From contig CP006868.1 in the NCBI GenBank assembly GCA_025340205.1, positions 450,001 through 482,000 on the forward strand: a stretch of DNA of 32,000 bases. Direction: 5' to 3'. The translations under genes were made by a program, and so were the position numbers. This document shows positions 5,804-32,000 of this stretch, piece after piece (within the stretch, counting starts at the first letter, position 1; each line of letters starts with the position of its first letter). The notes beneath the pieces are model-generated. The model was not told the DNA's origin, searched no databases, and was given only the letters and a program-made list of their open reading frames with translations. The DNA is from Ignicoccus pacificus DSM 13166 (lineage in GTDB: Archaea > Thermoproteota > Thermoprotei_A > Sulfolobales > Ignicoccaceae).

Positions 5804-5845
5804 TTTTTCAACCTTGGTCTTAGAAGTGTCTATTCCAGCTCTCCC

Positions 5846-6583: not shown

Positions 6584-6720
6584 CTAATCCCCTTCTAGGT
6601 ATAGGAAGGGTTTAAACGGGGAGGGAGTAATCTGGAGGTATAGCGCAGAAGCGAGATTAAGTGAGAGTTTATTGTATAACATATATTACAGATGCCGTAT
6701 TACATAGTTGAGGGGTTTCC

Positions 6721-6969: not shown

Positions 6970-7376
6970 TCGATGCATCTGTAGTAGTAAAATGGTTCAT
7001 TGAAGAAGAATATAGCGAGCAAGCGTTGAAACTCCTCGACGCCTACAAGGAAGGTCTATTGGATTTAGTAGCTCCCTCCCTCTTACCCTATGAAGTTCTC
7101 AACGCGTTAAAGTATTCAAATGTCTTCGGTGAGGATGAGTTGAAAGAAGTAGCCATTGTGCTCGAAAGCCTCCAGATAACTACCTTTGAACTAAGGAGCG
7201 ATCACGCTCGGAGGAGTTTAGAAATTGCAATGAGGAAGGGAGTGACCGTGTATGATGCCTCCTACGTCGCTCTAGCAGAACTAGAGAACGCTGCCTTCTA
7301 TACGGCTGACGAGAAACTCCTAAGAAAGGTTAAGGATTTAGATTTCGTGAAGCACATAAGGGATTTTGATATCTAG
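6951..7376 (+). CDS. vapC: PIN-domain ribonuclease toxin VapC
   Basis: MERKVVVDASVVVKW carries the first acidic residue, and VYDASYVALAE and FYTADEKL are also present. I chose the start at the ATG at 6951, which is in frame within track ORF 6924-7376. Confidence 0.85.
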   Translation: MERKVVVDASVVVKWFIEEEYSEQALKLLDAYKEGLLDLVAPSLLPYEVLNALKYSNVFGEDELKEVAIVLESLQITTFELRSDHARRSLEIAMRKGVTVYDASYVALAELENAAFYTADEKLLRKVKDLDFVKHIRDFDI

Positions 7377-8680: not shown

Positions 8681-8686
8681 TTGTGC

Positions 8687-10063
8687 TCACCTCTTCAAGT
8701 AGTAAACTATTACGAAAGCCAGAGCGGATAGAAAAATGGTTATCCCAAAGCTCAAGTCTGGATAAGGCAAGGGGGACTTGAAGGCCCTTGAGAGGCCGTA
8801 GGCTAGGGCCACCAGCGCTCCTACCACTGAGCTAGCGATTATGGCATCTCTGTTCCCCTTTCCTATTACCGTCGCCACGACCGGAACTAGGAAGGCTCCT
8901 GCTGTCAAGGTCCAGCCGGTCTTGAAGATCGTGGTAACCGCTCCCGCCAGCTCCTTCGGAAGGGTTAGGGTTAGAACCGCAATTACGGCTGCCGCTACCA
9001 TGCTCAGAAAGCTCAGAACCCTCAATACCTTGGTGTCCTTGATGTCAAACATGTCGTAGCCTATAGCGCTACCAACGGTTAGGGAGATCGAGTCAGCTGT
9101 GCTCATTGCAGCTGCCAGGACAGCGGCGCTGAAGACTGCCGCCCCAACGGTTCCCATGAGCTGCTGGGCTAGGAGGGGGATCGCCTTAATCGGGTTTATG
9201 GGCTTCTGGAGGAGTTGGGCGGCAGCTAAACCGCTCAAGAAGCTGCTGTAGGTTACTATGAATGCGAATGCAGTAGCTATGGCGGTAGACCTCTTCACTA
9301 TCCTGGGGTTCTTAGCTGTATAGAACCTGTTGATGAGCTGGGGAAGTCCCCAGACGGCTATGCTAGTGAGCAAAGCCAGGTCAAAGATCAGCCTTAGGTT
9401 GATCTTCGATGGAGGGACGAAGGGTTTAGAGGCGTCTAAAGCAGTGATGCCTCCCACCTTGGAGGTCGCTAAGATAACGAGCGCCAGCACACCGGTAGCC
9501 ATTATTATTCCTTGAATGGCGTCAGTCCAAACAACGCTGTACATACCTCCTAGAGCTACGTAAATTGCCATAACGAGTGCAATTATGAAAGCAGCCGTAG
9601 CTAAGTCCAGCTTGAAAACAGTTCCAACCATGGCGGCGGCTCCGCTTATGACGGTGGCGGCGTAGAGGGTTAATCCAACGGCCGTCACGAAGCCCAAGAG
9701 CCTCTGAAGGCCCTTGTTGTTGTAGGCCTTGGCAAATAGCTCTGGAACCGTTAGCGCATCGAACTTCTCGCTCAAAGCATTTATCTTTCTTCCAATGAAA
9801 ATAAACGTTACCAACGCTCCCAAGACTACGTTGAACACGGGGATGAGGAGGCTGGAGGAACCCCAGAGGAAGGCCCACATACCTCCAACGACTATGACCA
9901 CGCTGGAGAAGTACGTGGCTCCGAAGGTGAAGGCGAGCAACCATTCGCCTATTTCCCTGTTGGCCACTAGGAATCCTTTAATCGTATCAGCCTTTGCCTT
10001 GAATATGAATCCTATAAACAAAGTTAAAGCTAGGTAAGCTATCAAAACGCCCTCGGCTATCAC
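8687..10063 (-). CDS. Sodium:solute symporter (SSS) family transporter
   Basis: The protein is 458 aa with about 12-13 hydrophobic segments and SSS-like motifs (GGMYSVVWTDAIQG). It lies directly upstream of paaK on the same strand. Confidence 0.85.
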   Translation of the reverse strand: MIAEGVLIAYLALTLFIGFIFKAKADTIKGFLVANREIGEWLLAFTFGATYFSSVVIVVGGMWAFLWGSSSLLIPVFNVVLGALVTFIFIGRKINALSEKFDALTVPELFAKAYNNKGLQRLLGFVTAVGLTLYAATVISGAAAMVGTVFKLDLATAAFIIALVMAIYVALGGMYSVVWTDAIQGIIMATGVLALVILATSKVGGITALDASKPFVPPSKINLRLIFDLALLTSIAVWGLPQLINRFYTAKNPRIVKRSTAIATAFAFIVTYSSFLSGLAAAQLLQKPINPIKAIPLLAQQLMGTVGAAVFSAAVLAAAMSTADSISLTVGSAIGYDMFDIKDTKVLRVLSFLSMVAAAVIAVLTLTLPKELAGAVTTIFKTGWTLTAGAFLVPVVATVIGKGNRDAIIASSVVGALVALAYGLSRAFKSPLPYPDLSFGITIFLSALAFVIVYYLKR

Positions 10064-10167
10064 TCGCCCTCACCCTCCTCCTTCAAGCTGTACCATATCG
10101 CGACAGCAAGGGCACCTACTCCCACTCCGAGGGCCAGCAATACCACTCTTACCCACCTAAGGCCCAC
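10060..10167 (-). CDS. Unannotated 35-aa single-pass membrane peptide, a possible small subunit of the symporter
   Basis: Hand translation gives (GTG)MGLRWVRVVLLALGVGVGALAVAIWYSLKEEGEGE. Its TGA overlaps the GTG start of the symporter as GTGA. An A/T box (caaataaaag on the minus strand) sits about 23 nt upstream of the GTG, which fits a leaderless first gene. Confidence 0.35.
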   Translation of the reverse strand: MGLRWVRVVLLALGVGVGALAVAIWYSLKEEGEGE

Positions 10168-10233
10168 AACATTTAAGGGGCTTTTATTTGTTGACTCTCA
10201 AGATTGTCAAGAATGCCATGGCAGAAAAAGAAC

Positions 10234-11403
10234 TCAGCCCCTCTCCAGAGGGATCTTTTCTACAGTGACGGACTCCAAGTAGTCCCAATCTATGTCAAAC
10301 ATTAAGCCGGGAGAATCCCTCAGCTCCACGAATCCGCACTTTATGTCAAAGGGATCCTTCGCTAAGGACCTCTCATAGAACTGCTGATCTGGTGAGAAGT
10401 CGGAGGGCTCCAGGGGTCCCTTTACCGCTGATGCGACTACCATGTTCAAGCTCCTCCCTATGACTGTTTCGAGCAAACCTCCTATGAAGACTGGGATGTT
10501 GTGGTCCACCGCTATATCGAGCACTTGAAGGCTCGCAGTGAGGCCTCCCAGCCTGGGAGGCTTCACGTTTATTGAGAGCAGCGACCCGAACTCCTCGTTT
10601 AACATAGCTACCTCCAACGCCCTTCTAGGCGTGTCAACGCTCTCGTCGAGCACCACCTCTATTCCCTCTTCCGAGGAGAGCTTGGCTGAACTCACCAAGT
10701 CGCCGGGAGGGTAGGGTTGTTCTATTGCATCAGCGTAAGCGGCTACGTCGGAGAGCTGCTCCCTGTGGGACTCCCTTACCGGGTCATAGGCCCCGTTGGC
10801 ATCTGCCAAGAGTTGGACTCCGGGGAACTCGTGCCTGAGGGCCTTGAGGGGCTCCACGTCCCACCCGGGCTTTATCTTAACCTTGAGTCTCCTGGCCCCC
10901 CAGTTCAACGCCTCCTCAGCACAAGATATCAGTTCATCGAGGTCTTCGGTTATTCCAATGCTCTCCTGCACCGGCAGCTTGTAAGGCCTTCCGCCAACCG
11001 CTTCAACCAAGCTCTTGTTATTTAAGCAAGAGAGGAGCGTGAGGATAGAGTACTCTATCATGGTCTTCGCCATTTGGTTACCTCTATAGGAGTTCAGCTT
11101 TGAAAGGAGTTCCTTCACGTTTTGTGACATAAACAAGTGCTCCTTCATCTTCTTGGTGAACTCAACCACGCTCTCCACGAACTCTCCGGAGTACAGAGGA
11201 TAGGGGTCAACCGGGGCCTCTCCTGCTCCTATGCAATCGCCGCTCCTGGAAATGAGGAACACCCTTACTCCGTAGAACTCACCGAAGCTCGTGCGGAAGG
11301 CTCTCTTTATCGGTATCTTAGCTATTACTAACTCATAGCTCACGTCCTCTGGAATTGACCACGTAAGGTAATCCAAAGCCCATCTCCAAGGAAGGCTATG
11401 CAA
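10234..11403 (-). CDS. Enolase-superfamily enzyme, MR/MLE subgroup (o-succinylbenzoate synthase / N-acylamino-acid racemase-like)
   Basis: Catalytic signatures are present in order: LKVKIKPG (KxK), LLADANGAY (DxN), AIEQP and VLDES. The true start may be the GTG at 11343. Confidence 0.8.
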   Translation of the reverse strand: MHSLPWRWALDYLTWSIPEDVSYELVIAKIPIKRAFRTSFGEFYGVRVFLISRSGDCIGAGEAPVDPYPLYSGEFVESVVEFTKKMKEHLFMSQNVKELLSKLNSYRGNQMAKTMIEYSILTLLSCLNNKSLVEAVGGRPYKLPVQESIGITEDLDELISCAEEALNWGARRLKVKIKPGWDVEPLKALRHEFPGVQLLADANGAYDPVRESHREQLSDVAAYADAIEQPYPPGDLVSSAKLSSEEGIEVVLDESVDTPRRALEVAMLNEEFGSLLSINVKPPRLGGLTASLQVLDIAVDHNIPVFIGGLLETVIGRSLNMVVASAVKGPLEPSDFSPDQQFYERSLAKDPFDIKCGFVELRDSPGLMFDIDWDYLESVTVEKIPLERG

Positions 11404-11446: not shown

Positions 11447-11872
11447 GTGAGGTTGATAATGATAAGGTATGATCCCGAGGAAGGAGCGCAGAGGTTCGTC
11501 ATAGACAACGAGCTGGAGAAAGTAGTTAGAGAGAAGGCGGCTCATGTAATAAAGGAAGAATGGAATCCCGAGAGCGGAGAGTTCAGCGTAATGATGGACT
11601 ACTTCGAGTACGAATATCCTCTCCCCTTGAAGAAGGAGCAGTATGAGCTCTTCAAGAACTTCAACATGAGAAAGGAAGGGAAGGTAGTGGTGGTCAGAGT
11701 TCCCTACTTCGTGATAATGTTCCCCAAGTATCCCTACGAGGGAGCTCCCGTGGTAGTGTACTTGATCACCCCATTCTTCGAGGACAGAGTAGATGAGCTC
11801 ATGGAGTTCGCTAAGCAAGTGTCCTCCGGGATAAACGAGATGCCGGAGGAGTCAGAGGGCCAGCTGGAGTAA
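11447..11872 (+). CDS. Hypothetical protein
   Basis: A long ORF with host-like codon usage and no recognisable motif. The ATG at 11459 is an alternative start. Confidence 0.45.
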   Translation: MRLIMIRYDPEEGAQRFVIDNELEKVVREKAAHVIKEEWNPESGEFSVMMDYFEYEYPLPLKKEQYELFKNFNMRKEGKVVVVRVPYFVIMFPKYPYEGAPVVVYLITPFFEDRVDELMEFAKQVSSGINEMPEESEGQLE

Positions 11873-12721
11873 CCTCTTTCTACCGATAAGGAGGAGCTTT
11901 CCTCCCCTCCACAGGATCCTCTGAAGCTTCCCGTCCCACTCCACTTTGTATTCCTCGAGGACCTTCAGACTCTCCACGTCTACTAACCTTATCCTCAACT
12001 TATCCCCTTCCGGCTCCGCGCTTATCATGTCGCAGTTGGGGCCCAAGGTGACCCTCGAGCCTCTGGGAAGGGTTATCTTAACCGGCCTCTTCAGGTTCCC
12101 CTCCACGTTGTAAAGCCTCACGTCAGTGAGCAAGTCCTCTTCCTTTAGGGTTACCGTGAAGAAGGGATAGCAGCTGCTCACGTCTGTTATTTCCTTATCA
12201 TAGAGTATCTTGTTGATCACCATTGGATCCAAGCCATTGGTGATGAGCCAGCCCTCTATGTCAATTACGTTTAGGGAGTTCCCGGAAGGGGCTAGGAGGA
12301 ACACGTCGCAGATCTCTATCTTCCCGCTCACCCTTCCCACGAACCTCCTCGGGAGGGGCATCACTGTGCCGAGCTCATCGATGAGTAGGCACCCGTCCCC
12401 GCAGGCGATTACTCCTAGCTCGTAGTCTCGAAAGTAAGGATACCTCCTTAGGTCTTGGATCACTATCTCATCGACTAATTTCCCTTGACCACTATACTTT
12501 TCGATGCTATCAAGAACATTCCCCATACCTAAAGTGTTGGAGAAGGGAAGGTAATTAGTGGAAATGTAGAAGTTATCCCTTTCCATGAAGAGTATCTCGC
12601 CTGTAGACTCGATGAGACCTCCGCCTTCCTCAGTAACTACCCCCACCAAGCCGCTAGGGTGGAGGTCCACGTCCTTTATCGCCTTTGAGAATTCCCTTCT
12701 CCAGATTTCCAGCGCTTTCAA
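11852..12721 (-). CDS. Hypothetical protein, probably beta-rich
   Basis: A 289-aa ORF with no motif I recognise. It overlaps the convergent previous ORF by 21 nt. Confidence 0.45.
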   Translation of the reverse strand: MKALEIWRREFSKAIKDVDLHPSGLVGVVTEEGGGLIESTGEILFMERDNFYISTNYLPFSNTLGMGNVLDSIEKYSGQGKLVDEIVIQDLRRYPYFRDYELGVIACGDGCLLIDELGTVMPLPRRFVGRVSGKIEICDVFLLAPSGNSLNVIDIEGWLITNGLDPMVINKILYDKEITDVSSCYPFFTVTLKEEDLLTDVRLYNVEGNLKRPVKITLPRGSRVTLGPNCDMISAEPEGDKLRIRLVDVESLKVLEEYKVEWDGKLQRILWRGGKLLLIGRKRLLQLAL

Positions 12722-12776
12722 CCTAAGGATCGAGGAGAGCGAGGTGATTAAATGTGGAAAGGGGTAGAAAAAAGCG

Positions 12777-13385
12777 TTAGCCGGTTACGGTTACGGTAGT
12801 GGTGACGGTCACAGTCACGGTCTTGGTGACGGTCACGGTGGTGGGAGCGCAAGCTCCGGCGGTGGTGGTAGTGCTGGTGCTGGTCTGCATGACGGCGGGC
12901 TGGATGGTGATTATCTTGCTGGCGTACCAGTCGCCCATGGGGCTTCCGTCACCGTTGGCGGCGATGACAGCGATGTTGAAGGTCACCGGGACGGGCTTCT
13001 TGGGAGCGATCCACTCGAAGGTCCACTCCCTCTTTAGAGAGCCCTCCTTGGTGTGGGTGATTATGGGCTTGCCGGTCATCATGTCAGTGCTTATGAAGGT
13101 GTCCTTGGGGTCGATGACCTTTAGCTTACCAGCGCTGACGCTCACAGCGAATCCGCCGCAGGCAACTCCACCGGTGCAGTCGGGACCCTTGGTTATCTCG
13201 ATGGTTATCTTGTAAGCCTTGCCGGGGACGTACTCCTTAGGTAGGCCGATTACCTTGAACTGGGCAGGGTGCTGAGCGGCGCCCATGTGGCACTGGGTAC
13301 AGGTTAGGGTGGGAGCTCCGTTGCTCATGGCGAAGACGGTAGCGGCGAGGATCACTGCTAAGAGAACGCCCTTAAAGGCCTTCAT
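12777..13385 (-). CDS. Secreted mono-heme c-type cytochrome-like protein with a beta-sandwich domain and a (Thr-Val)n tail
   Basis: I chose the ATG at 13385, which has GAGGTGA upstream. The signal peptide is MKAFKGVLLAVILAATVFAMSNG. There is a single CxxCH motif (CTQCHMG). The C-terminus is QTSTSTTTT...TVTVTKTVTVTVTTTVTVTG, encoded by a 6-nt periodic ACN-GTN repeat at 12780-12850. Confidence 0.6.
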   Translation of the reverse strand: MKAFKGVLLAVILAATVFAMSNGAPTLTCTQCHMGAAQHPAQFKVIGLPKEYVPGKAYKITIEITKGPDCTGGVACGGFAVSVSAGKLKVIDPKDTFISTDMMTGKPIITHTKEGSLKREWTFEWIAPKKPVPVTFNIAVIAANGDGSPMGDWYASKIITIQPAVMQTSTSTTTTAGACAPTTVTVTKTVTVTVTTTVTVTG

Positions 13386-19795: not shown

Positions 19796-21382
19796 ATGAA
19801 AATGAGGAAGGGCACACTACTAACCTACGTCGGCCTCGTCACCTTCTTGCTCGGAACAAGCATAATACTGACGTTCGTAATACCGGCTCAGCTGTACTTC
19901 CTCGCCCCGGGAGCTGAGGACGCTTGGAAGTACGTTAAGGTAAAGGGTATTCTCATTTCCAATCATACGGAAGTTTTTATGAAATATAACATAACTAAGT
20001 ACGAAGGCTCCAAGACTTGCATTCAGTGTCACAAGAAGGAGACCAAGGACTTCGTGCACTCGATCCATTACAAGATGTGGAACTACGTAAATGACATAGT
20101 AGGTAAGCCTAGGGTGAAGGTTGGAAGCAGAGTGCTCTACAACGACTTCTGTGGTGCCATATTCTGGAATATGACCAAGCCAATAAATTTCATTGGTAAA
20201 ACTGTTCTCAAGAATGTTCCGAATGACATGGAAAAATTAAAGGGAAGGGTCGTCTCGACCGGCTGTTCCGCTTGCCACGGCTCCAGCTTAGGCAAGGTTC
20301 CAAATATAGAGCCGAACGGCAAGGACCTCGAAAACGTCGACTGCTTGGTCTGCCATTCTCTCAAATACAGAGGAGGACCCCTTGGAGTAGCGAAGGGCTA
20401 CAGGAAGCTCGTCAAGACTGAGGACGGCTGGAGATACGTCCCTGACATCTCGATAAAGGACGCCGCGTTGATATTGGCTAAGCCCGGGAAGGACTCTTGC
20501 TTGGCCTGCCACGCCTACTCAGGAGGAGGTCCCGGCTTCAAGAGGCCCAACTTAACCCCCGATCTGATGGGGAACGTGTCGGAGCACTTCGACGTCCACA
20601 TGGCTAGGGGTCTTCACTGCGTGGACTGCCATCCTTTCGAGGACCACAAGGTGGCCACCAAGGCCGTGGATACCTTTGCCAGGGAAGGAAAGGCGAAGAG
20701 CTGCGTCGATTGTCATCCTCATAGGCACAGAGCTCCCATCGTCGGATTCTTTATCGAGAGATTCCATAAAAGGGTGAGCTGCCAAGCTTGCCACATCCCC
20801 TACATAGCTCATGGTAAGTACCCAACTGACGTTAAGAGGGATTGGAGGAAAGCGGAGTTCAACTACGAGCTGAAGAGGTGGGAACCTGAGATAGAGCTGA
20901 AGAGAGACGTCGTTCCGACCTACGCTTGGTGGGACGGACGGGATAGGATCGTCTACCCCGACAAGGTTACTGGAAACGAGATAATCTTTGCCAAGCCAGT
21001 CAAAGGAAAGAATGCCAAGATCTATCCCTTTAAGGTCCACATATCATATGTTCCAATCGATAAGGAAAAAGGCGTACCAATACCCATCAAGGTTGGGATA
21101 GTTTTCAGCACGGGAAACGTCACCCTAGCGATAAAGAAAGGAGCTGAGATAGCGGGCTTGAATTACACCGGTAACTTCATCAAGGTAGTTAGATACATGA
21201 GCGTGGATCACGGAGTGGTTCCAGCTAAGGAGGCCCTCAAGTGCACGGACTGCCACAGTCCTTGGACTAGGATGCCTCTGAAAGAGCTGGGCTATGGTCC
21301 TCTTCCAGAAATCGCTTATTACGGCGCTCCTCTGCTCGTCCTAGCTGGCTTGGCGCTAACTCTGTTCTCAATATTGTCCTAA
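19796..21382 (+). CDS. Membrane-anchored octaheme c-type cytochrome
   Basis: Eight CxxCH motifs: CIQCH, CSACH, CLVCH, CLACH, CVDCH, CVDCH, CQACH and CTDCH. There is an N-terminal transmembrane/signal-anchor segment (LLTYVGLVTFLLGTSIILTFVI) and a C-terminal transmembrane segment (APLLVLAGLALTLFSIL). Confidence 0.85.
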   Translation: MKMRKGTLLTYVGLVTFLLGTSIILTFVIPAQLYFLAPGAEDAWKYVKVKGILISNHTEVFMKYNITKYEGSKTCIQCHKKETKDFVHSIHYKMWNYVNDIVGKPRVKVGSRVLYNDFCGAIFWNMTKPINFIGKTVLKNVPNDMEKLKGRVVSTGCSACHGSSLGKVPNIEPNGKDLENVDCLVCHSLKYRGGPLGVAKGYRKLVKTEDGWRYVPDISIKDAALILAKPGKDSCLACHAYSGGGPGFKRPNLTPDLMGNVSEHFDVHMARGLHCVDCHPFEDHKVATKAVDTFAREGKAKSCVDCHPHRHRAPIVGFFIERFHKRVSCQACHIPYIAHGKYPTDVKRDWRKAEFNYELKRWEPEIELKRDVVPTYAWWDGRDRIVYPDKVTGNEIIFAKPVKGKNAKIYPFKVHISYVPIDKEKGVPIPIKVGIVFSTGNVTLAIKKGAEIAGLNYTGNFIKVVRYMSVDHGVVPAKEALKCTDCHSPWTRMPLKELGYGPLPEIAYYGAPLLVLAGLALTLFSILS

Positions 21383-23358: not shown

Positions 23359-23850
23359 GGAGACGCTGACCCTTAGCGTTAGAGATGGAGGGGAGGGAAG
23401 CCTCGTGGTAGTTAAGGAAAGCGGGGACTGGACATATGAGAGGTTTATCTCTTCTATCTCAATTCTGGTATAGTTAAGCTCCTCGCCTATGATCTTTACC
23501 TTTCTTAAGGCATCCCTTATTGCCTCTCTTAAGGCCTTCTCGTAGGCCATCTCCAAGCTCTTTCTCGAAGGCTCAAAGGTCACTCTTTCAATCGTGCATC
23601 CGGAGAACCCTATTAGCTTCAGCGCCCTTCCGAGCTTCTTTATGGGTACCTTTATCAGTAAGGAGTAGGTAGAGAGATAGGAGGAGCTCCTTTCATCGTA
23701 CCAAGAGTTGAAGCCGGTAAGATATATCGTAGCGTTTCCTATTACTTTGGTCAAAGCATTAACCTTAGCTCTGGCCATCTCCTCCGAAATGACTGGAGTC
23801 GAGGCCTTTGCTGAGCAAGAGATTGAAAAGGAGGCTATTTCAGGCTTCAT
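23335..23850 (-). CDS. SIMPL (DUF541)-like exported protein; the N-terminus is probably mis-delimited
   Basis: The SIMPL-like start of the domain, KVHVIGVGTVSMKPEIASFSI, and a hydrophobic signal-like segment, IIKHVLFLLLLSLVALSL, lie in frame upstream of the first ATG/GTG/TTG (up to 23937). See the corresponding finding. Confidence 0.5.
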   Translation of the reverse strand: MKPEIASFSISCSAKASTPVISEEMARAKVNALTKVIGNATIYLTGFNSWYDERSSSYLSTYSLLIKVPIKKLGRALKLIGFSGCTIERVTFEPSRKSLEMAYEKALREAIRDALRKVKIIGEELNYTRIEIEEINLSYVQSPLSLTTTRLPSPPSLTLRVSVSLTATLTK

Positions 23851-24010
23851 GGAAACGGTTCCAACTCCTATTACGTGAACTTTCAGCGAGAGTGCTACTA
23901 AGGAAAGAAGAAGGAGAAATAGGACGTGCTTGATGATCCCTCACCCTATGTGAGTGCACATCAATTGCTAAAGAGTAAGCTCCATAACCTAAGATCCTCA
24001 TCTAAAGCAA

Positions 24011-24020
24011 AATTTATTAA
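24011..24020 (+). promoter_or_regulatory. Candidate TATA box of the tRNA-Gly gene
   Basis: aatttattaa is centred about 41 nt upstream of tRNA position 1. This would give a short leader that RNase P removes. Confidence 0.4.
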
Positions 24021-24056
24021 CTAAGGTAGGGTGGTGGAGATCGGAGGGTCCGAGGA

Positions 24057-24135
24057 GCGGCGGTCGTCTAGCCTGGACTAGGACGCCGGCCTGCCACGCC
24101 GGAGATCCCGGGTTCAAATCCCGGCCGCCGCACCA
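24057..24135 (+). tRNA. tRNA-Gly (anticodon GCC), with CCA encoded
   Basis: I folded the cloverleaf by hand. Acceptor stem is GCGGCGG/CCGCCGC and D stem is GUCU/GGAC. Anticodon stem is CCGGC/GCCGG with loop CUGCCAC. Variable loop is AGAUC and T arm is CCGGG-UUCAAAU-CCCGG. Discriminator is A, followed by CCA. Confidence 0.92.
24075..24135 (+). repeat. attL: a 61-bp direct repeat that is the 3' three-quarters of the functional tRNA-Gly
   Basis: ggactaggacgccggcctgccacgccggagatcccgggttcaaatcccggccgccgcacca is identical to 31927-31987. Confidence 0.9.
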
Positions 24136-24271
24136 ATTACCTTCTTCTAGCCTCTCCCATGTCGAGCATCTCGAGGAGGGGCACGCTCTAGCGGTTGACT
24201 GTTCGAAAACAAGAAGCTCTCGAAGTTCTTCCCTCGAACCCTCCATCAGTTGCACGGATCATATCAACCCC

Positions 24272-25555
24272 ATGCAACTGAAGTTAGTAAGCGAACTTAA
24301 TGCTTGGGTCAGAGTCAAGCTAATCCGTTCAGCTCTCGAACACTTTACAGTGGAAGAACTCTCAAAGGCCCTGGGCAAGAGCAAGAGCACTATCTACCGC
24401 TACTCCAAAGGAGATGTAATCCCAAGCGAGGAAGTCGTAGCGAAGGTCTTGGCGTTGCTCTCTGTTGACGTAGCCTTCGCTTCAGTGGGCAAGGAAGTCC
24501 TCAAGGCCTACGGCTTGCTCGACCACGAAGGCAAGCCGAGGCTCGTACCCATGCTAGCTATCCTGAGCGTTGCCTTGGGAGATCCTCTCCTCAGGAAGTT
24601 AGTCCTCGAGTGGGTTTCAAGAGCTTTAGGCAACGAGGTGACTGAGCTCAAGCCCGAACCGGCTTTGCTCATGAAGTGGGAAGACGTCTTCGAGGCCTAC
24701 CTCAAAGAGCGTAAGGGCATAAGTGAGGAGCAAATCGCTTACTACCGCTCGCTCTTTGAAAGGTTCTTCGAGGGCAAGGCGTTAACCGAAGAGTTCGTGG
24801 AAGAAGCCTCGAAGTTCCCAGGGTGGGCGAGGGTCGTCTTTAGGCACTACTTGAACTGGTTGTTACTCGAGCGGAGGGTTGACAGCGAGTTCGTAAGCTG
24901 GGCCTTGAAGAAGATTCCTACGAGGGGCTACAAGGTAAGCGTGAAGGTCCATGAGATAAGCTTTGAGGAGGTCACGAAGACCCTGACTGTGCTTAAACAA
25001 GAGAACGAAGAGATCTATTGGCTCTATCGCCTCCTCCTCGAGAGCGGGCTCAGGCTAGCCCACGCCTTGGAGTTAATCGCTTCATGGAATCCCACCGAGA
25101 AGGTCTTCGTGGAACCCTTGGGCAAGGTTGAGGAGAGGTGCAAGTGCTTTGAAACGCACTGCCGCTGCTGGCTGGGGATCAAGAGGGGCAAGAAGTCCGC
25201 GCTCTGGGCTTTCATGAGCAAGGAGACCTTTGAGGTGCTGAACGAGATAGCTCCGACCAAGCTCTCGAGACACTGCGTGAGCAAGAAGGCGAAGGCTCTG
25301 GAAATCCTTGAGCCCTCGAAGCTTCGCAAGTTCTCCGAGCAATACATGAAGGAGGCGTTCGCCAAGAAGGCACAAGAGCTGGGCGAGCACCCTGAGGTCA
25401 TAATGCAGTTCGTGCAGGGGAGGACCGGCGAGCTGAAGGTCTCTCATTTGTACTACGACAACTTACTGAGGAAGACCGATTTCGTTTACCCGAGCTGGTT
25501 GGAGTTCTTGGGAGATGTGCGCTTTGGTCCTTTGGAGAGAGGACTCGTGGGATAG
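24272..25555 (+). CDS. int: Archaeal-type tyrosine recombinase / integrase
   Basis: It lies 136 nt from the att repeat and has an N-terminal HTH (SKSTIYRYSKGD). The C-terminal catalytic-like series is ESGLRLAHAL (Arg I), SKLRKFSEQY (xxR box), QGRTGE (Arg in place of His/Trp, as in archaeal integrases) and SHLYY (Tyr nucleophile). Confidence 0.75.
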   Translation: MQLKLVSELNAWVRVKLIRSALEHFTVEELSKALGKSKSTIYRYSKGDVIPSEEVVAKVLALLSVDVAFASVGKEVLKAYGLLDHEGKPRLVPMLAILSVALGDPLLRKLVLEWVSRALGNEVTELKPEPALLMKWEDVFEAYLKERKGISEEQIAYYRSLFERFFEGKALTEEFVEEASKFPGWARVVFRHYLNWLLLERRVDSEFVSWALKKIPTRGYKVSVKVHEISFEEVTKTLTVLKQENEEIYWLYRLLLESGLRLAHALELIASWNPTEKVFVEPLGKVEERCKCFETHCRCWLGIKRGKKSALWAFMSKETFEVLNEIAPTKLSRHCVSKKAKALEILEPSKLRKFSEQYMKEAFAKKAQELGEHPEVIMQFVQGRTGELKVSHLYYDNLLRKTDFVYPSWLEFLGDVRFGPLERGLVG

Positions 25556-25566
25556 GTGTTGTCTTG

Positions 25567-25606
25567 GGACCAGGGGCCCCCGCCTCTCGGACCAGGGGCC
25601 CCCGCC
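25567..25606. repeat. Two tandem copies of GGACCAGGGGCCCCCGCC with a 22-nt period, just downstream of int
   Basis: Identical 18-mers lie at 25567-25584 and 25589-25606. Each contains the GGGGCCCC palindrome. Confidence 0.8.
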
Positions 25607-25660
25607 CGTTCCATGATAACATAGTATACTGGGGTTATTAAGTTTTTGTCAACTACAGTG

Positions 25661-26653
25661 TTATTGAAGTATGCTATCACAATTAAGATATATCTTATTG
25701 CTCCCTGGCTTTCTACACAACTTGGGATCACTGGAATACGTAAGTAACTTACAATTGAACTCCAACTTATCAAACCACAGCTTCACCGACTCCTTAATCT
25801 CCTGAGACACCCATCTACCTATTAAGATCCTCCTAAGCGAATACCCAACCAAATCGGCTAACTGTATCAACGGGTTGAGTTGAGATTCGTGTAACTGAAA
25901 GGTAATTATTTTAGAGTAATCAACCCTATTGGATGTCGTAGTTATTTCATCCTCCCCAAAGGACACTAAGAGAGCAGTTATCTTTGCATAGAGACTGGAT
26001 GGAAGGACGTGAGCGTCTTTATCTATCCACAGAATAACTTCTGAATTATCATGTGCTGTAACGAATCCCACAATGCGTTTTAAAAGCTCTGATAAGACAT
26101 AGCCTTTAGCGATTGGTATTATGTTAAATTCAAGTAGCTCCGGTATCTTAACTATGATGTCTAGCTCGTCACTCCTTCTAGAATGTAGGTAATCTTGAAG
26201 AGCATCAATGAGGAGGTATTGCGTTCTGATCTTTAAACATTCCGTGTTTGTTGCTACGAAAGCGTATGTCCATTTAGTGTCAGCGCTTAGTCTGATGTGC
26301 TCCCTGAGTACATCTAACACCTTAGAGAAGACTTGTTCAATAACGTCATGGGGCACATTAAGATCTCTAAGTGCATTGAACAGGAAACGTCCCTTTACCT
26401 CAAAAGGGATGTCGCTTCTCTTCTTGTCTCTCATACGTTTTAGTACATCCTCGACAGATTTGTTCAGCTGTAGTTCTTGAAAAGCTTGAGAGAGAAGTTC
26501 CTTCCAGTACTCTTTGGAAACCAGCTTGTATGTGTCATTGTAGATGTCAAGCGGTACTATAAGCGCGCCCATAGCGAATATTGATTCATGACTGGTTATT
26601 GGTATATTCTCTTCTACATTGCCGGTTTCGTCAATACCCGCGGCGAATAACAT
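25661..26653 (-). CDS. DUF3800-like protein, carried as low-GC cargo within the element
   Basis: The N-terminus MLFAAGIDETGN matches the h-D-E-[ST]-G hallmark at the start of DUF3800 proteins. GGTGGGG sits 6 nt upstream of the ATG. The region is about 38-40% GC by my line counts, against roughly 50-60% in flanking lines. Confidence 0.5.
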   Translation of the reverse strand: MLFAAGIDETGNVEENIPITSHESIFAMGALIVPLDIYNDTYKLVSKEYWKELLSQAFQELQLNKSVEDVLKRMRDKKRSDIPFEVKGRFLFNALRDLNVPHDVIEQVFSKVLDVLREHIRLSADTKWTYAFVATNTECLKIRTQYLLIDALQDYLHSRRSDELDIIVKIPELLEFNIIPIAKGYVLSELLKRIVGFVTAHDNSEVILWIDKDAHVLPSSLYAKITALLVSFGEDEITTTSNRVDYSKIITFQLHESQLNPLIQLADLVGYSLRRILIGRWVSQEIKESVKLWFDKLEFNCKLLTYSSDPKLCRKPGSNKIYLNCDSILQ

Positions 26654-26699
26654 ATATTCCCCACCAATTGTCCTCTTGTCTACCCGTGTTTAACTTTTG

Positions 26700-27002
26700 T
26701 TAGAAGACTTTGTTACTTAGTGAATCCGACCTCCACGAGGCTCTACGGGTCTTCGCCCTCCTCACCTCCCTCAGCACCTCGTGGAGTTTCTTGGCGACTT
26801 CTTGATCACACTCGAAGAGTAAGGCCATTGCAAGCGTTATTTCCAAGTTGTTGAGTCTGTAGCGAGATCTCAAGATAGCGAGCAAGCCTTCGAACTTCGA
26901 GTGGGCGTTGATGCGGGAGGCGGAAAGGGGAAGGCCCAGGTAGTGGAGGGCTTGTTGCTTGAAGTTCCCGAGACAAGTGTGTACTTGTGCTGGGCTGTCC
27001 AC
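26700..27002 (-). CDS. Hypothetical protein of the element
   Basis: A 100-aa ORF upstream of, and co-oriented with, the DUF3800-like gene. No motif recognised, and several overlapping alternative-frame ORFs make the call uncertain. Confidence 0.35.
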   Translation of the reverse strand: MDSPAQVHTCLGNFKQQALHYLGLPLSASRINAHSKFEGLLAILRSRYRLNNLEITLAMALLFECDQEVAKKLHEVLREVRRAKTRRASWRSDSLSNKVF

Positions 27003-27121
27003 CTTCGCTCACCGTTGCTCCGGAGGGTACCTCGTGTGCACCCGAAAGGAGGGCTCGCGGCGGAGCGCTTGTTCGTGTGGGGAAAGGCCCGGTGGTAGGG
27101 CAAGGCCGAAATCGTTCGGAT

Positions 27122-27136
27122 CCCCCCCCCCCCCCC
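27122..27136. repeat. C15 homopolymer (G15 on the minus strand)
   Basis: I counted 15 consecutive C residues directly, in non-coding DNA of the element. Confidence 0.95.
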
Positions 27137-27185
27137 GTTTAAGGACTTAAGGGGGTTTGTGTTTCACCAATTGATGGTCCCAGCT

Positions 27186-27399
27186 GGCCCAGAGGCCCAG
27201 CGCTTCTGGGGGATACCCGGGGCGAGTGAGAAAAACTGCGAGGGGGCCTCGGGGAAACCACTGGGCCTCTGGGCCCTCGTTTACCATCACATATTTACTT
27301 GGTGATTATGGTTTCACCAATGATCTGAAATCCAAATCACTAAGGTCTCCGCCGTCAAGGGCCCAGAAGGCCCAGCGGGGCCCAGTTGGGAGCTGGGCC
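27186..27399. repeat. GGCCCAG iteron-like array with 5 direct and 3 inverted copies, including a perfect 15-bp inverted repeat
   Basis: GGCCCAG occurs at 27186, 27194, 27360, 27369 and 27379. CTGGGCC occurs at 27261, 27269 and 27393. ggcccagaggcccag (27186-27200) is the exact reverse complement of 27261-27275, with a 60-nt spacer. Confidence 0.85.
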
Positions 27400-27531
27400 C
27401 TGAACGGCAGCGGTGTTACGGTATCGAACTTAAAGGTACATCTCTAATCACTCCCCTCTCGATTTACGGAAGGGAGAGGGAACGACTAGCGAGTGGTCCT
27501 GTTGGGCCCTCAGGAGGCTGAGAAGTTTGTT

Positions 27532-30453
27532 TCAGTTTAGTAATTCAGCGAGTTCTTCCGCCCCAACTTCCTCTTCCTTTAGCTTCAGCGAAATTATGAA
27601 GAGCGAGGTTGGTTCCAGATCGAGTTTGACTTTGTAACCTTTTTTAATGCTTCCGCAAAGCTTCACCTTACTCCTCTGCTCCCTCCTCTTCTTCAGTGCT
27701 CCCAACTCCTCCAACCACCTCGTAACGCTCAGCAACGCCACATTCTCTCCGTATCTCTTCCTTATCCAGTTGTTCACCTCCTCGAAGAAGTTCTTGTTTG
27801 CGAATAAGCAAACGTCGTTACCCTCCACGAACATTACCGCTCCGTTCTCTTCAAACGCAACGCAAGAGGGCGGATAGCCTTGAATTCCAGTAGGCCAATC
27901 GAGGGCCTCCTTGTCGTAAACGTAGAGCTCTAACTCCTTGATCTCCTTGTCCAACACCCTCCTTATGAACGAGTAGAACGCTTGTCTGTAGTCGAAGCTC
28001 TCCCTCCCGACGGCGCTCTCCGTCAGCCCCTCGAAATCTGGCTTGGGGAACGGCTCTAGTCCATACTCCTCATAGAGTTCCCTCCAAGCCTGGTAGCCTA
28101 GCTCAAGAAGTTCCAGTACCTTCCTCCTCCTCGGGAGCCCCTTGAGTTCCCTCTTCCTCTCTTCAAAGAGCTTTGCGAACTTCTCGAGGACCTTCAGGCC
28201 AACAGTCTTTACCGCCTTGATCCTCTCAAGGTCCATCGAGTCCGGGGTGAAACCCCTCGCCTTCTCAACATCTATCCCGTATTCAGCGCTCAAGTAGAGC
28301 CTCACGAACTTATCCTCCGAGTCCAGCCCTATCCTCAACCCCTCGTTGGCTGTCATCACTACGCCTCTCAAGTTAAGGTAGACTCCTTGGACCGTCGGTC
28401 CGCTTTTCTCTGCCATTACCACGTTGGTGGCTGCTCTGTGGAGCTCTTTCAAAGCCCTCTCGTCCATGTTGTGGGCCTCATCAAGAACCAGCAAGAGCTT
28501 GGCTTGGGCTAAAGCCTTCTGAGTCTCGTACTCGGTCCTTGGTAGAGCTGCGTCGGGCTCGACGTTGTTGAGTAAGGCCAAGAACTCCGCTATGGTGCTC
28601 TTACCTCCTCCCCTCTTACCCTCGATCACCAAGTGAGGGAGATAGCTCAGCTCCTTGCGGATTTCGTAAGCTAAGGCCAGAGCGGGGTAGAAGCTCAGAG
28701 CGAAGGCGGGAACCTCGTGGTCCTTGTAGCCCTCAACGAACCTCCTAACGACCTCAAGCCCCAGCTCGATATCTCCTTCGAGCTCAGGCTCCCACTTGTG
28801 AACGAACCTCCACCTCGGCCTGTAACCAGTCTCCCTCGCCAGCAGTAGTTTCCCTTCAACGAGCCAAGGTCCTACTGCGTACCAAGTCTCGACCTCCTCC
28901 TCAGCCATTTCCTCTATCAAACGTTTGAAGGCTTCCTTGTCGTCCAGGAAACTGAGCTGTTTGAGGTTGTTCGCTACGTCCTCTAGTGTCCCAACGAGTT
29001 CCAGCTCCTTGCCTTTGACCTCAAGTCTGACCGAGTAGTAGAGGCCCAAGTTTAGCGGGAGACCCTCGGGGAGTATCTTGATCAGTTTGACCTCCTTGGG
29101 GATAGCGCTTGTTATCAACCTAGCCTCGCCTTGGTTGTTGATGACGTAAACTCCTTCCCTCCCAGTCGTTACACTGCGCACAGCTTTGCCTTGTCTCCTC
29201 CTGAGCCAAGCGACCCCGGAGCCCCTCGCAATTCCCAAGATCCTCTTTATCGTATTGAGGACCTCTCCGACTTGCTTAGCGGCCTCTTCATCATCCAGTC
29301 CGTCCTCCTTCTTTATTTTGAGTAATTCCTCCCTCAGGCACTTGAGCCCGCAAAGGTTTACCCCTTGCCTCTTTTCATAGTGGTAGTCCACTTGGTAGAG
29401 TCTCTCGCTCTTCTCCTCATCGTCCTCAGCCAAGAGTTCGATTACCCTTCTGGCGCTCTCCTTCTCTATCCCGGCTTTTATCATGACTCCGAGCAAGTCC
29501 TTGACTATCTCGTGTCTGTGGCCAGGCTTGTAGAATGGCTTGACAATTTGCACCAACTCGAGAATCCTCGTGTTATCGAGACGTCTTAAAGGCTGGTGGC
29601 GACCCTTGACCGCGATGCCGTTCTTCGACCCCCTAATCGTATCGAGCGGAGGTAAGACCTCCTCGATGACGCTGGTGCTCACCGGTAGCGCTCCGTCCTT
29701 GATCCAGAACGTTGGTTTGGGCCACTCGTACTTCCAGTTGATCGTTCCGATGAGCCTCATGACCCTCGCCGGGTCCTTGATCCTCTCGTCGGCCGGGAGG
29801 CCGAACTCCTTCCCGAGCGCGATGAAGCGCTCCTGGTACTTCCTCCAATCGTTGGGCTTCACCGGATTGAGCAACGTAACGTAGAGGTGGAACCCTCCTC
29901 CACTGAAGGCGAAGTTGAAGTCTATGTCATTCTCCTCGAGGAACGCTAGAAACTCCGCTAGCTTCTCTAGGCTCTCTTCTTCAAACTTACCCTTGTAGTC
30001 TAGGTCGAGCACTAGGACGTTGAACTCTTTGACGTCCTCATTCGAGTGCCTCTTGTTGTAGGAGACCCAAGCTCTGAGCCTCTCATTGAGCTCGAAGTCA
30101 TTATCTTTCAGCTCCTCGAGCTTCACTATCCCAAGTGCCACGTAGGTCTCAGCGTTACCCAAGGCCTCAAGGAAGTCTCTATCCTCCAAGAGCTTTAGCA
30201 GATCACCCTTCCGCTCGAAGGCTAACGTTAGCGAGCCCCTCTCCTCCTTCTGCCAAATGATAACAGGCTTGTCCTCGTTCCCCGTTATCAGCCTCAAGTG
30301 TTCAACGATCTCGCTGGTCCTAACCTTGGGTTCTTCCCTAGTAGCCCGCTCGAGGGCTTCCTTGAGCCCCTTTGTCCAAACGTTAACTTTTTCAGGACCA
30401 TTGGACCCTTCGTTATCGGGTAGCTGCGAGGGGGAGGTGACTACGGCCGTCAT
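27532..30453 (-). CDS. Replication protein: an N-terminal AEP prim-pol domain fused to a C-terminal P-loop (SF3/D5-like) helicase
   Basis: AEP motifs: I is VLVLDLDYK, II is SGGGFHLYV and III is DPARVMRLIGTINWK. Walker A is GKRGGGKST and Walker B is LLVLDEAHN. I chose the ATG at 30453 (MTAVVTSPS...), which overlaps the upstream ORF stop as ATGA, rather than the track start at 30567. Confidence 0.85.
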   Translation of the reverse strand: MTAVVTSPSQLPDNEGSNGPEKVNVWTKGLKEALERATREEPKVRTSEIVEHLRLITGNEDKPVIIWQKEERGSLTLAFERKGDLLKLLEDRDFLEALGNAETYVALGIVKLEELKDNDFELNERLRAWVSYNKRHSNEDVKEFNVLVLDLDYKGKFEEESLEKLAEFLAFLEENDIDFNFAFSGGGFHLYVTLLNPVKPNDWRKYQERFIALGKEFGLPADERIKDPARVMRLIGTINWKYEWPKPTFWIKDGALPVSTSVIEEVLPPLDTIRGSKNGIAVKGRHQPLRRLDNTRILELVQIVKPFYKPGHRHEIVKDLLGVMIKAGIEKESARRVIELLAEDDEEKSERLYQVDYHYEKRQGVNLCGLKCLREELLKIKKEDGLDDEEAAKQVGEVLNTIKRILGIARGSGVAWLRRRQGKAVRSVTTGREGVYVINNQGEARLITSAIPKEVKLIKILPEGLPLNLGLYYSVRLEVKGKELELVGTLEDVANNLKQLSFLDDKEAFKRLIEEMAEEEVETWYAVGPWLVEGKLLLARETGYRPRWRFVHKWEPELEGDIELGLEVVRRFVEGYKDHEVPAFALSFYPALALAYEIRKELSYLPHLVIEGKRGGGKSTIAEFLALLNNVEPDAALPRTEYETQKALAQAKLLLVLDEAHNMDERALKELHRAATNVVMAEKSGPTVQGVYLNLRGVVMTANEGLRIGLDSEDKFVRLYLSAEYGIDVEKARGFTPDSMDLERIKAVKTVGLKVLEKFAKLFEERKRELKGLPRRRKVLELLELGYQAWRELYEEYGLEPFPKPDFEGLTESAVGRESFDYRQAFYSFIRRVLDKEIKELELYVYDKEALDWPTGIQGYPPSCVAFEENGAVMFVEGNDVCLFANKNFFEEVNNWIRKRYGENVALLSVTRWLEELGALKKRREQRSKVKLCGSIKKGYKVKLDLEPTSLFIISLKLKEEEVGAEELAELLN

Positions 30454-30656
30454 TGGTCCACCACCTCCTCTCCCTCCTTCAAGCTTCCGCACATCGCCTC
30501 GTACAACAGGAGAGCCCTCGTCACGACCTCGTTGTCCGCATGGCCGTGGAAGACGTAACCTTCGCACATCTCCCTCGCCATCTCCTCTGCTTCCTTCCTG
30601 AGCTCGGAACCAAGGTCCTTGAGGACTTCCTCGATACGTTGCTCGATCTCCTTCAT
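30450..30656 (-). CDS. Hypothetical small protein (68 aa) of the element operon
   Basis: It has 4-nt overlaps with both neighbouring ORFs, and is acidic and helical. Confidence 0.5.
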   Translation of the reverse strand: MKEIEQRIEEVLKDLGSELRKEAEEMAREMCEGYVFHGHADNEVVTRALLLYEAMCGSLKEGEEVVDQ

Positions 30657-30979
30657 TGCTTACACCTCCTCACAGCTCTCTTTAAGGCCTCCTTGGTGAG
30701 CGGAGTTTGAGGAAGCTCCTCGCCTTTGCAGATCCTTTCTACGAGCCTCTCGATCTCTAGCTCGTTCACCACCACTTCGGGCTCATAGCCCAAGCGCTTC
30801 AACTCCTTGTCGACGAGCCTCTCGAGAGTCTCCCTGAGGCTTTGGTCGTAAACCGTTGCGAGGAAGCAGAGCTTAGCGTGGAGCCCCTCGCTCGCTGGCA
30901 GAGTCTTAGGCTTTCCATTTATTACCTGGTACTTTGCCACAGTGGTGGCCGCGAGGTCGCGGAGCGCGGCTTTTCTCAC
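30653..30979 (-). CDS. Small protein, possibly a ribbon-helix-helix DNA-binding protein
   Basis: KTLPASEGLHAKLCFLATVYDQSLRETLERLVDKEL resembles a strand-helix-helix layout. It overlaps both neighbours by 4 nt. Confidence 0.4.
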   Translation of the reverse strand: MRKAALRDLAATTVAKYQVINGKPKTLPASEGLHAKLCFLATVYDQSLRETLERLVDKELKRLGYEPEVVVNELEIERLVERICKGEELPQTPLTKEALKRAVRRCKQ

Positions 30980-31398
30980 TGCGCCTCACCCCCAACCCTC
31001 TTGATTATCTCTTCTGCCTCCTTCAGCATCTTACACTTACTGAGCTTCTCGAGTAGGGCCTTGAGCTCGTCCTCGTGCTTCCTCATTATCTCCAGCAAGG
31101 CCTTAGTTATCGCCACGTTCGGTAGTCTGTGCTCTTTCCTCAGCTCGATTACCGCCTCTGCGAAGTCTCTCGCCACCTTGAGCTTGGTGAATTCCTTCTC
31201 TTCAAAAAAGCTCGAGAACTTCTCGCAGCTTTCTTGTTTTCCGGTCTTCACAGTTCCACCCGTATCTACCTGGGGTACCAGTGGTTGCTCATGGTGAGTC
31301 GAATCTTGCATCTCATTTCCCCTCACCCAACGTAGGGTACCTAGTCCGTTGCGCACGCTCCCTCCCGTATCCCCCAAGGGTACCAACCGCTCTGCCAT
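30976..31398 (-). CDS. Hypothetical protein, with its C-terminal half paralogous to ORF 31434-31787
   Basis: I preferred the ATG at 31398, which has GGTGAGGGAG 5 nt upstream. The track start (GTG at 31440) and the ATG at 31311 are alternatives. The 5' part lies in a tandem duplication. Confidence 0.5.
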   Translation of the reverse strand: MAERLVPLGDTGGSVRNGLGTLRWVRGNEMQDSTHHEQPLVPQVDTGGTVKTGKQESCEKFSSFFEEKEFTKLKVARDFAEAVIELRKEHRLPNVAITKALLEIMRKHEDELKALLEKLSKCKMLKEAEEIIKRVGGEAQ

Positions 31399-31430
31399 GG
31401 TTACTCCCTCACCCTTACCGAGGGTACCAT
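31240..31430. repeat. Imperfect tandem duplication (units of about 65-85 nt) with GGGTACC cores
   Basis: Unit 31259-31341 (cccgtatctacctggggtacca...cctcacccaacgtagggtacc) aligns with unit 31364-31428 (cccgtatcccccaagggtacca...cctcacccttaccgagggtacc). Each unit carries a GGTGAGGG SD-like box followed by an ATG on the minus strand. Confidence 0.7.
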
Positions 31431-31433
31431 TGC

Positions 31434-31787
31434 TCACCACTTCATCCTCGCCAAGCGACTATCCCACTTGTACACTTCTTTCGCCCTCAGCTTCTTGCAG
31501 AATCTGATGTCCTCGATGGTCTTCCTGAACTCCTCCTCGTGCCTCTTCAGGACGTAGTAAGCGGCCATAGTTACTGTGTGGTTCGTCGTGTTCAGCTCCT
31601 TCCTTAGCCTCAGCACCAGCAAGGCGAACCAGCTTGAAACGGTGAGCCTCGACTTGATTTCGAGCAAGTGGTCCTCCTCTTCGATGTCCTTGCACCTAGG
31701 GTGCTTCTGCCACTCGTACTCCTCCACAAGCATCCCCGCCCAGAGCTGGGGTACCAGTGCGCTAGCGGTGAAACGGAGTAGTCGCAT
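31434..31787 (-). CDS. Hypothetical protein, first gene of the element's leftward operon and paralog of ORF 30976-31398
   Basis: An ungapped hand alignment of RLRKELNTTNHTVTMAAYYVLKRHEEEFRKTIEDIRFCKKLRAKEVYK with ELRKEHRLPNVAITKALLEIMRKHEDELKALLEKLSKCKMLKEAEEIIK gives about one third identity. Confidence 0.5.
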   Translation of the reverse strand: MRLLRFTASALVPQLWAGMLVEEYEWQKHPRCKDIEEEDHLLEIKSRLTVSSWFALLVLRLRKELNTTNHTVTMAAYYVLKRHEEEFRKTIEDIRFCKKLRAKEVYKWDSRLARMKW

Positions 31788-31926
31788 TTTGATGGCGAGT
31801 ACTGGGACGAAAGGTCTGCCTAGCAGAGAAATTGGTTAGACCTTCGAAGGAAGCGGGCATAACGGTGAAACGGAAAGCTTCAGCTGGGAGCTCGCTTGAG
31901 TAAGAGGAGGAAAAGGAACTCGAGGG

Positions 31927-31987
31927 GGACTAGGACGCCGGCCTGCCACGCCGGAGATCCCGGGTTCAAATCCCGGCCGCCGCACCA
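31927..31987 (+). repeat. attR: the displaced 3' fragment of tRNA-Gly (61 nt)
   Basis: It is identical to 24075-24135. The upstream sequence (aaaggaactcgaggg) cannot form the acceptor or D arms, so this is not a second tRNA gene. Confidence 0.9.
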
Positions 31988-32000
31988 TTCTTCCTAATTA

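Follow-up and report, generated by a model that had tools for sequence, protein, structure and literature searches.

A putative cargo gene of the DUF3800 family and its adjacent hairpin in a predicted integrated plasmid of Ignicoccus pacificus

DUF3800 (Pfam PF12686) is a widespread protein family of no tested function, the genes of which recur in type VII retrons and in Cas12a2/a3 and type VI-F CRISPR loci (PMC7736814, PMC10910872, PMC12669027, PMC13594972, PMC5737381). They are also found beside eleven unexplained structured RNAs, whose side and orientation relative to the gene both vary (PMC5737381). Characteristic of the family are a D-E motif in the N-terminal part, where the first strand ends, and a QxxD motif in the C-terminal part (PMC7736814), and modelling has assigned the family the RNase H fold (PMC7736814, PMC10910872, PMC12669027). 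DUF3800 is already known, though uncharacterised, and low-GC accessory genes in mobile-element slots are common. Here we describe a DUF3800-family gene from Ignicoccus pacificus DSM 13166, located in a stretch of 32,000 nucleotides (nt) of contig CP006868.1 (positions 450,001 to 482,000; hereafter the window), where it lies in a low-GC island of a 7.85-kb element that appears to be an integrated plasmid. The locus is an extreme DUF3800 outlier: archaeal, apparently plasmid-borne and single-gene, with a large insertion in its protein and a conserved hairpin of its own.

A DUF3800-family gene in a low-GC island

The gene (25661..26653, minus strand) is the single intact open reading frame (ORF) of the island at 25610-26700 and encodes a 330-residue protein, N-terminus MLFAAGIDETGN, predicted to be an RNase-H-fold nuclease. 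A previous reading of the letters alone, the sequence-only reading, had described one 330-residue ORF on the strand opposite to the integrase gene and had proposed DUF3800 membership, and both descriptions agree with our results. The GGTGGGG ribosome-binding site that it noted is also present, ending 5 nt ahead of the ATG rather than 6 nt. The protein matches PF12686 with an E-value of 1.9e-8 and 35.6 bits, over the curated gathering threshold of 21 bits, and nearly the whole model is covered (profile positions 4-148 of 149). Because residues 7-275 span this 149-position model, the protein holds more than 100 extra residues, which are predicted to be helical. Like described members of the family (PMC7736814), it carries the N-terminal D-E motif (G-I-D8-E9-T-G) and the C-terminal QxxD motif (Q264-L-A-D267). 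Unlike them, it has this large insertion, an archaeal host and a single relative.

That relative came from an exhaustive phmmer search of 1.84 billion representatives, in which the sole real match was P0002, a 351-residue protein that is 36% identical (E 7e-44) and also matches PF12686; another match, the saposin-repeat protein P0003, was judged spurious. A word-indexed protein search returned nothing beyond the query itself, and a search with the two-sequence profile found no relatives beyond the protein and P0002, a lineage of two sequences in about 15 billion. The D-E and QxxD motifs are invariant between the two proteins, and so is a W-[IV]-D-x-D motif (D211, D213). In proteins that are only 36% identical, the invariance of the acidic and QxxD residues suggests constraint. 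Scans against NCBIfam and PHROGs gave no significant match for the DUF3800 protein.

The composition of the island is distinct from that of its surroundings. G+C content is 40.1% over 25610-26700 and 40.5% in the ORF, and no 1091-nt window of the 32 kb has a lower value than this interval (mean 0.507, standard deviation 0.030, z about -3.6), the runner-up being at 6651 with 0.428. Sliding 500-nt windows give 0.398-0.43 across 25751-26750, with 0.51-0.56 in the left flank and 0.59 in the right flank, and the island stands at 0.40 against 0.545 in the remainder of the element. The G+C content at third codon positions (GC3) of the DUF3800 ORF is 0.435, the lowest of 33 ORFs (the other 32 average 0.64 +/- 0.06, with a minimum of 0.477), as is its index resembling the codon adaptation index, computed with host ORFs as reference (0.569; host mean 0.710, standard deviation 0.047). 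The low-GC discontinuity reported by the sequence-only reading is therefore recovered in the computed profile, and the composition of the ORF is foreign in both the sliding-window and the codon-adaptation calculations that it had proposed. Its figure of about 38% was slightly low, the computed value being about 40%; of its two hand counts of 23 G+C in 60 nt, the one for 25681-25740 is exact, and the one for 26041-26100 should read 22. The second-lowest GC patch of the window, at 6650-7376 (0.41-0.43), corresponds to a VapBC-like pair in which a PIN-domain ORF (6924-7376; Pfam 1.4e-14, GC3 0.477) is preceded by a small one (about 6722-6930).

An integrated element with an exchangeable slot

The element that carries the gene is bounded by perfect 61-nt direct repeats at 24075-24135 and 31927-31987. 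The repeat is the 3′ part of a complete tRNA-Gly(GCC) gene (24057..24135, plus strand), detected by ARAGORN and with 61.9 bits by the Rfam tRNA model, the 3′ 61 nt of which form the left attachment (att) repeat. The right att repeat (31927..31987, plus strand), 100% identical over its 61 nt, is a partial copy of the tRNA-Gly 3′ end and gives a weak tRNA match. Next to the complete tRNA gene lies int (24272..25555, plus strand), which encodes a 427-residue integrase with an N-terminal helix-turn-helix and an archaeal tyrosine-recombinase domain (Pfam Phage_integr_3 2.4e-20 and HTH_3 2.6e-7; PHROG integrase 6.6e-22), without a match in the phage collection. All other genes of the element are on the minus strand, and no virion genes were detected in it. 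The largest of them (27532..30567) encodes Rep, a primase-polymerase with a P-loop helicase, of 973 residues from the ATG at 30453 or 1011 residues from a GTG. Residues 328-939 of Rep, 61% of its length, are 32% identical (tblastn E 4e-76) to RepA of the Saccharolobus plasmid pIT3, annotated as a “bifunctional DNA primase/polymerase”. Rep also matches a PHROG primase and, weakly, DUF5906/AAA, and its homologue P0007 carries Pfam Prim-Pol.

Taken together, the tRNA-Gly att repeats, the integrase and the pIT3-like Rep indicate that the element is a pRN-like plasmid in the integrated state, as judged from sequence comparison. Accordingly, the gene does ride on a mobile element as had been proposed, and the plasmid in question is an integrated chromosomal copy, not a free one. 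The element resembles pRN1, pIT3 and other small Sulfolobales plasmids in its size and its large Rep with primase-polymerase and P-loop helicase parts, and tRNA-integrated pRN derivatives in its Phage_integr_3-type tyrosine integrase and its att site at a tRNA 3′ end. It departs from the pRN family in that no CopG or PlrA homologue was detected by Pfam scans of its ORFs and in that its integrase gene remains intact on integration, unlike in the classic split-gene mode of SSV type.

Searching with Rep provided the opportunity to compare the element with a sibling. The closest Rep homologue, P0005, is encoded on a 13.2-kb contig of assembly GCA_054016855.1 (L002), and the element on this sibling contig occupies the same tRNA-Gly attachment site. 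The 61-nt att sequence is identical in the two different genomes, with copies at 476-536 and 12849-12914 of the sibling contig, and the two integrases are 80% identical. Four blastn matches join the elements: window 31987-31771 to sibling 476-692 (92%; att repeat and element end), 31777-29644 to 2888-5018 (85%; small ORFs and Rep N-terminus), 27136-26761 to 7681-8057 (89%; a small ORF) and 25507-24054 to 11482-12935 (78%; int and tRNA). The matches end at 25507 and restart at 26761, leaving a variable accessory slot at 25508..26760, which is the only internal part of the int and small-ORF region without a counterpart in the sibling. The small ORF and int converge on this slot with their 3′ ends. 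The slot holds 1.25 kb in the window, namely the DUF3800 gene and its flanks, versus 3.4 kb of other DNA in the sibling. At both edges the exchange reaches into coding sequence, replacing the final ~16 codons of int and the final ~20 of the small ORF, the sibling counterpart of which (86 residues, 7816-8076) is near-identical up to ...HEVLREVR. The interval 25610-26700 previously assigned to the cargo was thus correct in nature and too short in extent, since the exchanged unit, 25508-26760, clips the last codons of both flanking genes.

In the sibling, the slot is filled by a gene (8109-11387) for a 1092-residue P-loop nucleoside triphosphatase (NTPase) with the Walker-A motif GLQGVGKS. It has the same position and orientation as the DUF3800 gene, directly after the small ORF, and it is AT-rich as well (G+C 0.35-0.40 versus 0.53-0.59 in the backbone); we regard its product as another uncharacterised cargo candidate. 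Because a different low-GC gene is found in the sibling slot, the interpretation of the DUF3800 gene as cargo rests on a presence/absence comparison and not on composition alone. Together with the 61-nt repeats, this finding bears out the earlier proposal of a secondary acquisition nested in a mobile element. On the strength of these sequence comparisons, the slot gene is very probably a horizontally acquired cargo gene and a member of DUF3800. The two-element comparison further suggests that small pRN-like integrated plasmids have an exchangeable slot filled with AT-rich genes for predicted NTPases or nucleases.

This organization is reminiscent of defence and accessory hotspots, in which a fixed position between backbone genes receives variable cargo: the occupants here are AT-rich, single and mutually unrelated, and the sibling carries NTPase-type cargo. 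The latter includes a second insertion of lower GC (693-2887), coding for a 501-residue ATPase of AAA_15/OLD type and a 149-residue ORF. The ATPase, of the OLD/ABC type, matches PADLOC models for PDC-M47A (8e-18), PD-T4-4_A (1e-16), AriA and GajA, and such elements therefore seem to collect defence-like cargo. Unlike established hotspots, the slot is known from two compared elements, and neither of its occupants matches a validated defence family. Within the second insertion, nt 1101-1863 are 75% identical to the coding DNA of the Rep N-terminus and the encoded proteins have no blastp similarity, suggesting that the reading frame differs or that the origin is chimeric. No further siblings were found by an integrase-alignment search of genome and viral contigs or by a DUF3800 search of viral contigs.

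The comparison also bears on whether the gene could be a plasmid housekeeping function, for instance one in which an RNase-H-like enzyme removes primers or RNA-DNA hybrids left by Rep, or resolves replication or integration intermediates. In favour of such a function, the gene belongs to a family predicted to be RNase H-like, and its neighbours are a primase-polymerase replicon and a region that is rich in repeats and resembles an origin. However, neither the sibling, which has the same backbone, nor pIT3 carries the gene, its composition and codon usage are foreign, and it has essentially no relatives, which is not expected of a core replication function. We consider this explanation very improbable, the least credible of those discussed here.

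Regarding the slot borders themselves, an inverted repeat at 26731-26786 (CTCCACGAGG ... CCTCGTGGAG; 19-nt arms, 79% complementary) straddles the right junction at 26760/26761. A direct repeat, TGGAGTT(T)CTTGG, occurs near both borders and was judged to be due to chance, since its copies are asymmetric to the junctions and lie inside conserved coding DNA. The possibility of an invertible segment was rejected because no inverted repeats flank the DUF3800 gene.

A conserved hairpin block beside the gene

The gene for P0002 is carried by a 1.6-kb contig from SRR363374 (L001), where it is again AT-richer than its flank (36% versus 48% G+C). A survey of homologue neighbourhoods, proposed by the sequence-only reading and here comprising this one homologue, revealed the same block of ~95 nt beside both genes. 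The only good nucleotide match between this contig and the window is not the gene but a GC-rich, hairpin-forming segment, window 25566-25619 against contig positions 345-400 (79% over 58 nt, E 8e-5). The similarity runs on into an AT-rich stretch, so that the block extends over 25566-25660 of the window and 345-440 of the contig. By comparison, the two DUF3800 genes barely align as DNA, and the block is far better conserved.

The block consists of a GC-rich two-tier hairpin (25566..25619, plus strand), recognized by its identity to the homologue contig, its repeats and its fold and kept beside the only homologous gene, and of an AT-rich continuation (25620..25660, plus strand; TTATTAAGTTTTTGTCAACTA), which aligns to positions 400-440 of the contig, reaches up to the DUF3800 stop codon and includes a T5 run (25643-25647). 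The hairpin is made up of two 18-nt direct repeats, GGACCAGGGGCCCCCGCC, at 25567-25584 and 25589-25606; the repeat unit common to both loci is GGACCAGGGGCCCC(CGCC), with a spacing of 22 nt in the window and 26 nt in the homologue contig. The outer stem is GGGAC/GTTCC and the inner stem GGGGCCCC/GGGGCCCC. On the plus strand the minimum free energy is -37.4 kcal/mol for the window (z -3.8) and -30.5 kcal/mol for the homologue contig (z -2.2). The consensus hairpin is common to both loci and includes one compensatory pair, which with two sequences is not evidence of structural selection. Relative to the block, the gene is inverted between the loci, the block lying beyond the 3′ end of the gene in the window and ahead of its 5′ end in the homologue contig. 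The block is absent from the sibling contig, and hence travels with DUF3800 and not with the backbone.

This arrangement, a mobile-element gene beside a conserved structured motif, is like that of the DUF3800-associated RNA loci (PMC5737381). Possibly the block and this DUF3800 lineage are functional partners, the block being either a structured RNA, which would be the twelfth of its kind and the first from an archaeal plasmid, or the DNA or RNA substrate of the nuclease; we hold this interpretation to be unlikely. An Rfam 15 scan of window positions 23500-32000 and of the homologue contig, at E-values of up to 10, detected no DUF3800-I to -XI RNA motif. Scans with two hairpin patterns gave no match in viral contigs and none in metagenome contigs; three matches in genome contigs, from Streptomyces or Polyangiaceae, were judged to be chance occurrences in high-GC DNA. 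Were the partner interpretation true, the gene and the hairpin would form a minimal two-part system, small and thermostable, in which the action of DUF3800 proteins and of the RNAs that accompany them, long without explanation, could be studied.

The pairing of gene and block in two otherwise unrelated contexts, in either relative orientation, is also what would be expected of a selfish mobile cassette, in which an RNase-H-fold enzyme, similar to DDE transposases or RuvC, recognises the hairpin as an end or recombination site, moves the cassette between replicons and brings no benefit to the element. Transposases and resolvases are among the enzymes with an RNase H fold, conservation is much higher in the block than in the gene, and the slot borders cut both neighbouring genes, all of which is compatible with a cassette. 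On the other hand, each locus has one copy of the block, neither terminal inverted repeats nor a target-site duplication flank the gene, and the pattern scans of viral, metagenome and genome contigs gave no further relevant copies. Moreover, the sibling slot holds an unrelated gene without the block, indicating that slot exchange does not need it. A selfish cassette is consequently improbable in our estimation.

An addiction module or abortive toxin would likewise give the block a role. Here an indiscriminate nuclease would be held in check by an RNA or protein and would stabilise the integrated element through the death of cells that lose it. A single nuclease-like gene on a mobile element fits this description, and the conserved structured block next to the gene might be the source or the regulator of an antitoxin-like RNA. 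In the window, the AT-rich part of the block points antisense into the 3′ end of the gene. Nevertheless, a common antisense mechanism does not fit two loci in which the block is oriented differently. There is no antitoxin ORF, the small ORF upstream belongs to the backbone and also precedes a different cargo gene in the sibling, and scans of Pfam, PADLOC and NCBIfam gave no match to a toxin-antitoxin family. We rate an addiction function as improbable too.

Finally, the gene could be an inert passenger, recently acquired and without current function, the hairpin being a by-product of transcription or recombination such as an int terminator. The rarity of the gene and its poor adaptation to host codon usage agree with this view, as does the succession of hairpin and T5 run downstream of int. 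However, a terminator role shared by both loci fails because in the homologue contig the block lies in a divergent promoter region and not behind a gene. In addition, 330 codons remain intact in AT-rich DNA, where stop codons are frequent, and the two homologues, 36% identical, share the family motifs without change. These observations make an inert passenger quite improbable. If the gene-hairpin pairing is functional, the locus offers a compact system for DUF3800 biochemistry; if it is not, the locus is an ordinary example of low-GC mobile-element cargo.

Proposed role and remaining features of the element

The DUF3800 gene follows the small backbone ORF after 46 nt and shares its strand; for this reason it is probably co-transcribed with that ORF, while having its own GGTGGGG site. 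Because the sibling does without the gene, it appears dispensable for replication and integration. Its product is probably a metal-dependent RNase-H-fold nuclease, predicted to act through D8/E9, D211 or D213, and D267, the fold being assigned to this protein because of the family literature. We propose that, of the roles considered here, it most likely serves the element in genetic conflict, either through cleavage of nucleic acid from rival viruses or plasmids or through an abortive arrest of growth, and that the adjacent hairpin block might act as a partner RNA, a DNA site or a regulator. The evidence seems to us evenly balanced as to whether a cargo DUF3800 gene serves genetic conflict in this way. 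A role in defence or exclusion proper is a tentative suggestion, for which we would put the chances somewhat short of even; it is made plausible by the cargo of the sibling and by the published associations of DUF3800, both of which are circumstantial. The sequence-only reading had itself put forward exclusion, defence or addiction as speculation, and this is still their standing.

Several results weigh against this proposal. No experimental function was found in the literature for any DUF3800 protein. Unlike DUF3800 genes of type VII retrons or those accessory to CRISPR systems, the gene has no reverse transcriptase, Cas12, Cas13 or tetratricopeptide-repeat partner among the ORFs of the element, all of which were scanned, and the element contains no other cas gene and no CRISPR array. 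An AlphaFold2 model built from the two-sequence alignment is of low confidence (predicted local distance difference test score 50.6, predicted template modelling score 0.40); its Foldseek comparison with the PDB gave a best E-value of 0.58, with nothing below 0.5, and a sequence-profile search of the PDB with the protein found no match. Scanning the protein against PADLOC-DB 2.0 returned HEase alone, at noise level (E 0.035, 11.5 bits). As for the slot protein of the sibling, it has no PADLOC match, and its similarity to nSTAND3 is weak and below cutoff (E 0.004). Lastly, the comparison includes one sibling and one homologue, so that the slot and the gene-block module are each based on n = 2.

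The small backbone ORF upstream of the cargo gene and co-directional with it (26700..27002, minus strand; 100 residues) has a counterpart in the sibling and no match in Pfam, PADLOC, NCBIfam or PHROGs. Between this ORF and Rep is a non-coding region of about 530 nt (27003..27531), delineated by a repeat search and inspection of the sequence, which contains GGCCCAG-type repeats, a 34-nt inverted repeat (27172-27205 / 27256-27289) and a C14 run at 27124-27137, and in which GTTTCACCAAT occurs twice, at 27161 and 27311. The GGCCCAG/CTGGGCC repeats are dense over 27150-27520. This repeat-rich region is a candidate replication origin or a candidate array of Rep-binding iterons. The C14 run, G14 on the coding strand of the element, lies exactly at the edge of the block conserved in the sibling, and may mark a hotspot of recombination or slippage, or else a place where the assembly is weak.

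Upstream of Rep are four small overlapping backbone ORFs of 68, 108, 154 and 117 residues (30450..31787, minus strand). They have no Pfam match and are 85% identical in nucleotide sequence to positions 2888-4212 of the sibling contig, where four genes are called. Rep itself is a mosaic. Its N-terminal third and the small ORFs upstream are 85% nucleotide-identical to the sibling, and its C-terminal two-thirds, the pIT3-like helicase part, together with the adjacent repeat region, have no nucleotide match (27137-29643 versus sibling 5019-7680). The helicase part and the putative origin thus seem to have been exchanged together.

Outside the element, genes in the host flank code for ThiC, transporters and a multihaem cytochrome c. 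The latter, a 528-residue c-type cytochrome (19796-21382), has Cytochrome_cB, Cytochrome_C7 and MtrC/F-like domains; multihaem c-type cytochromes are unusual for many hyperthermophilic archaea.

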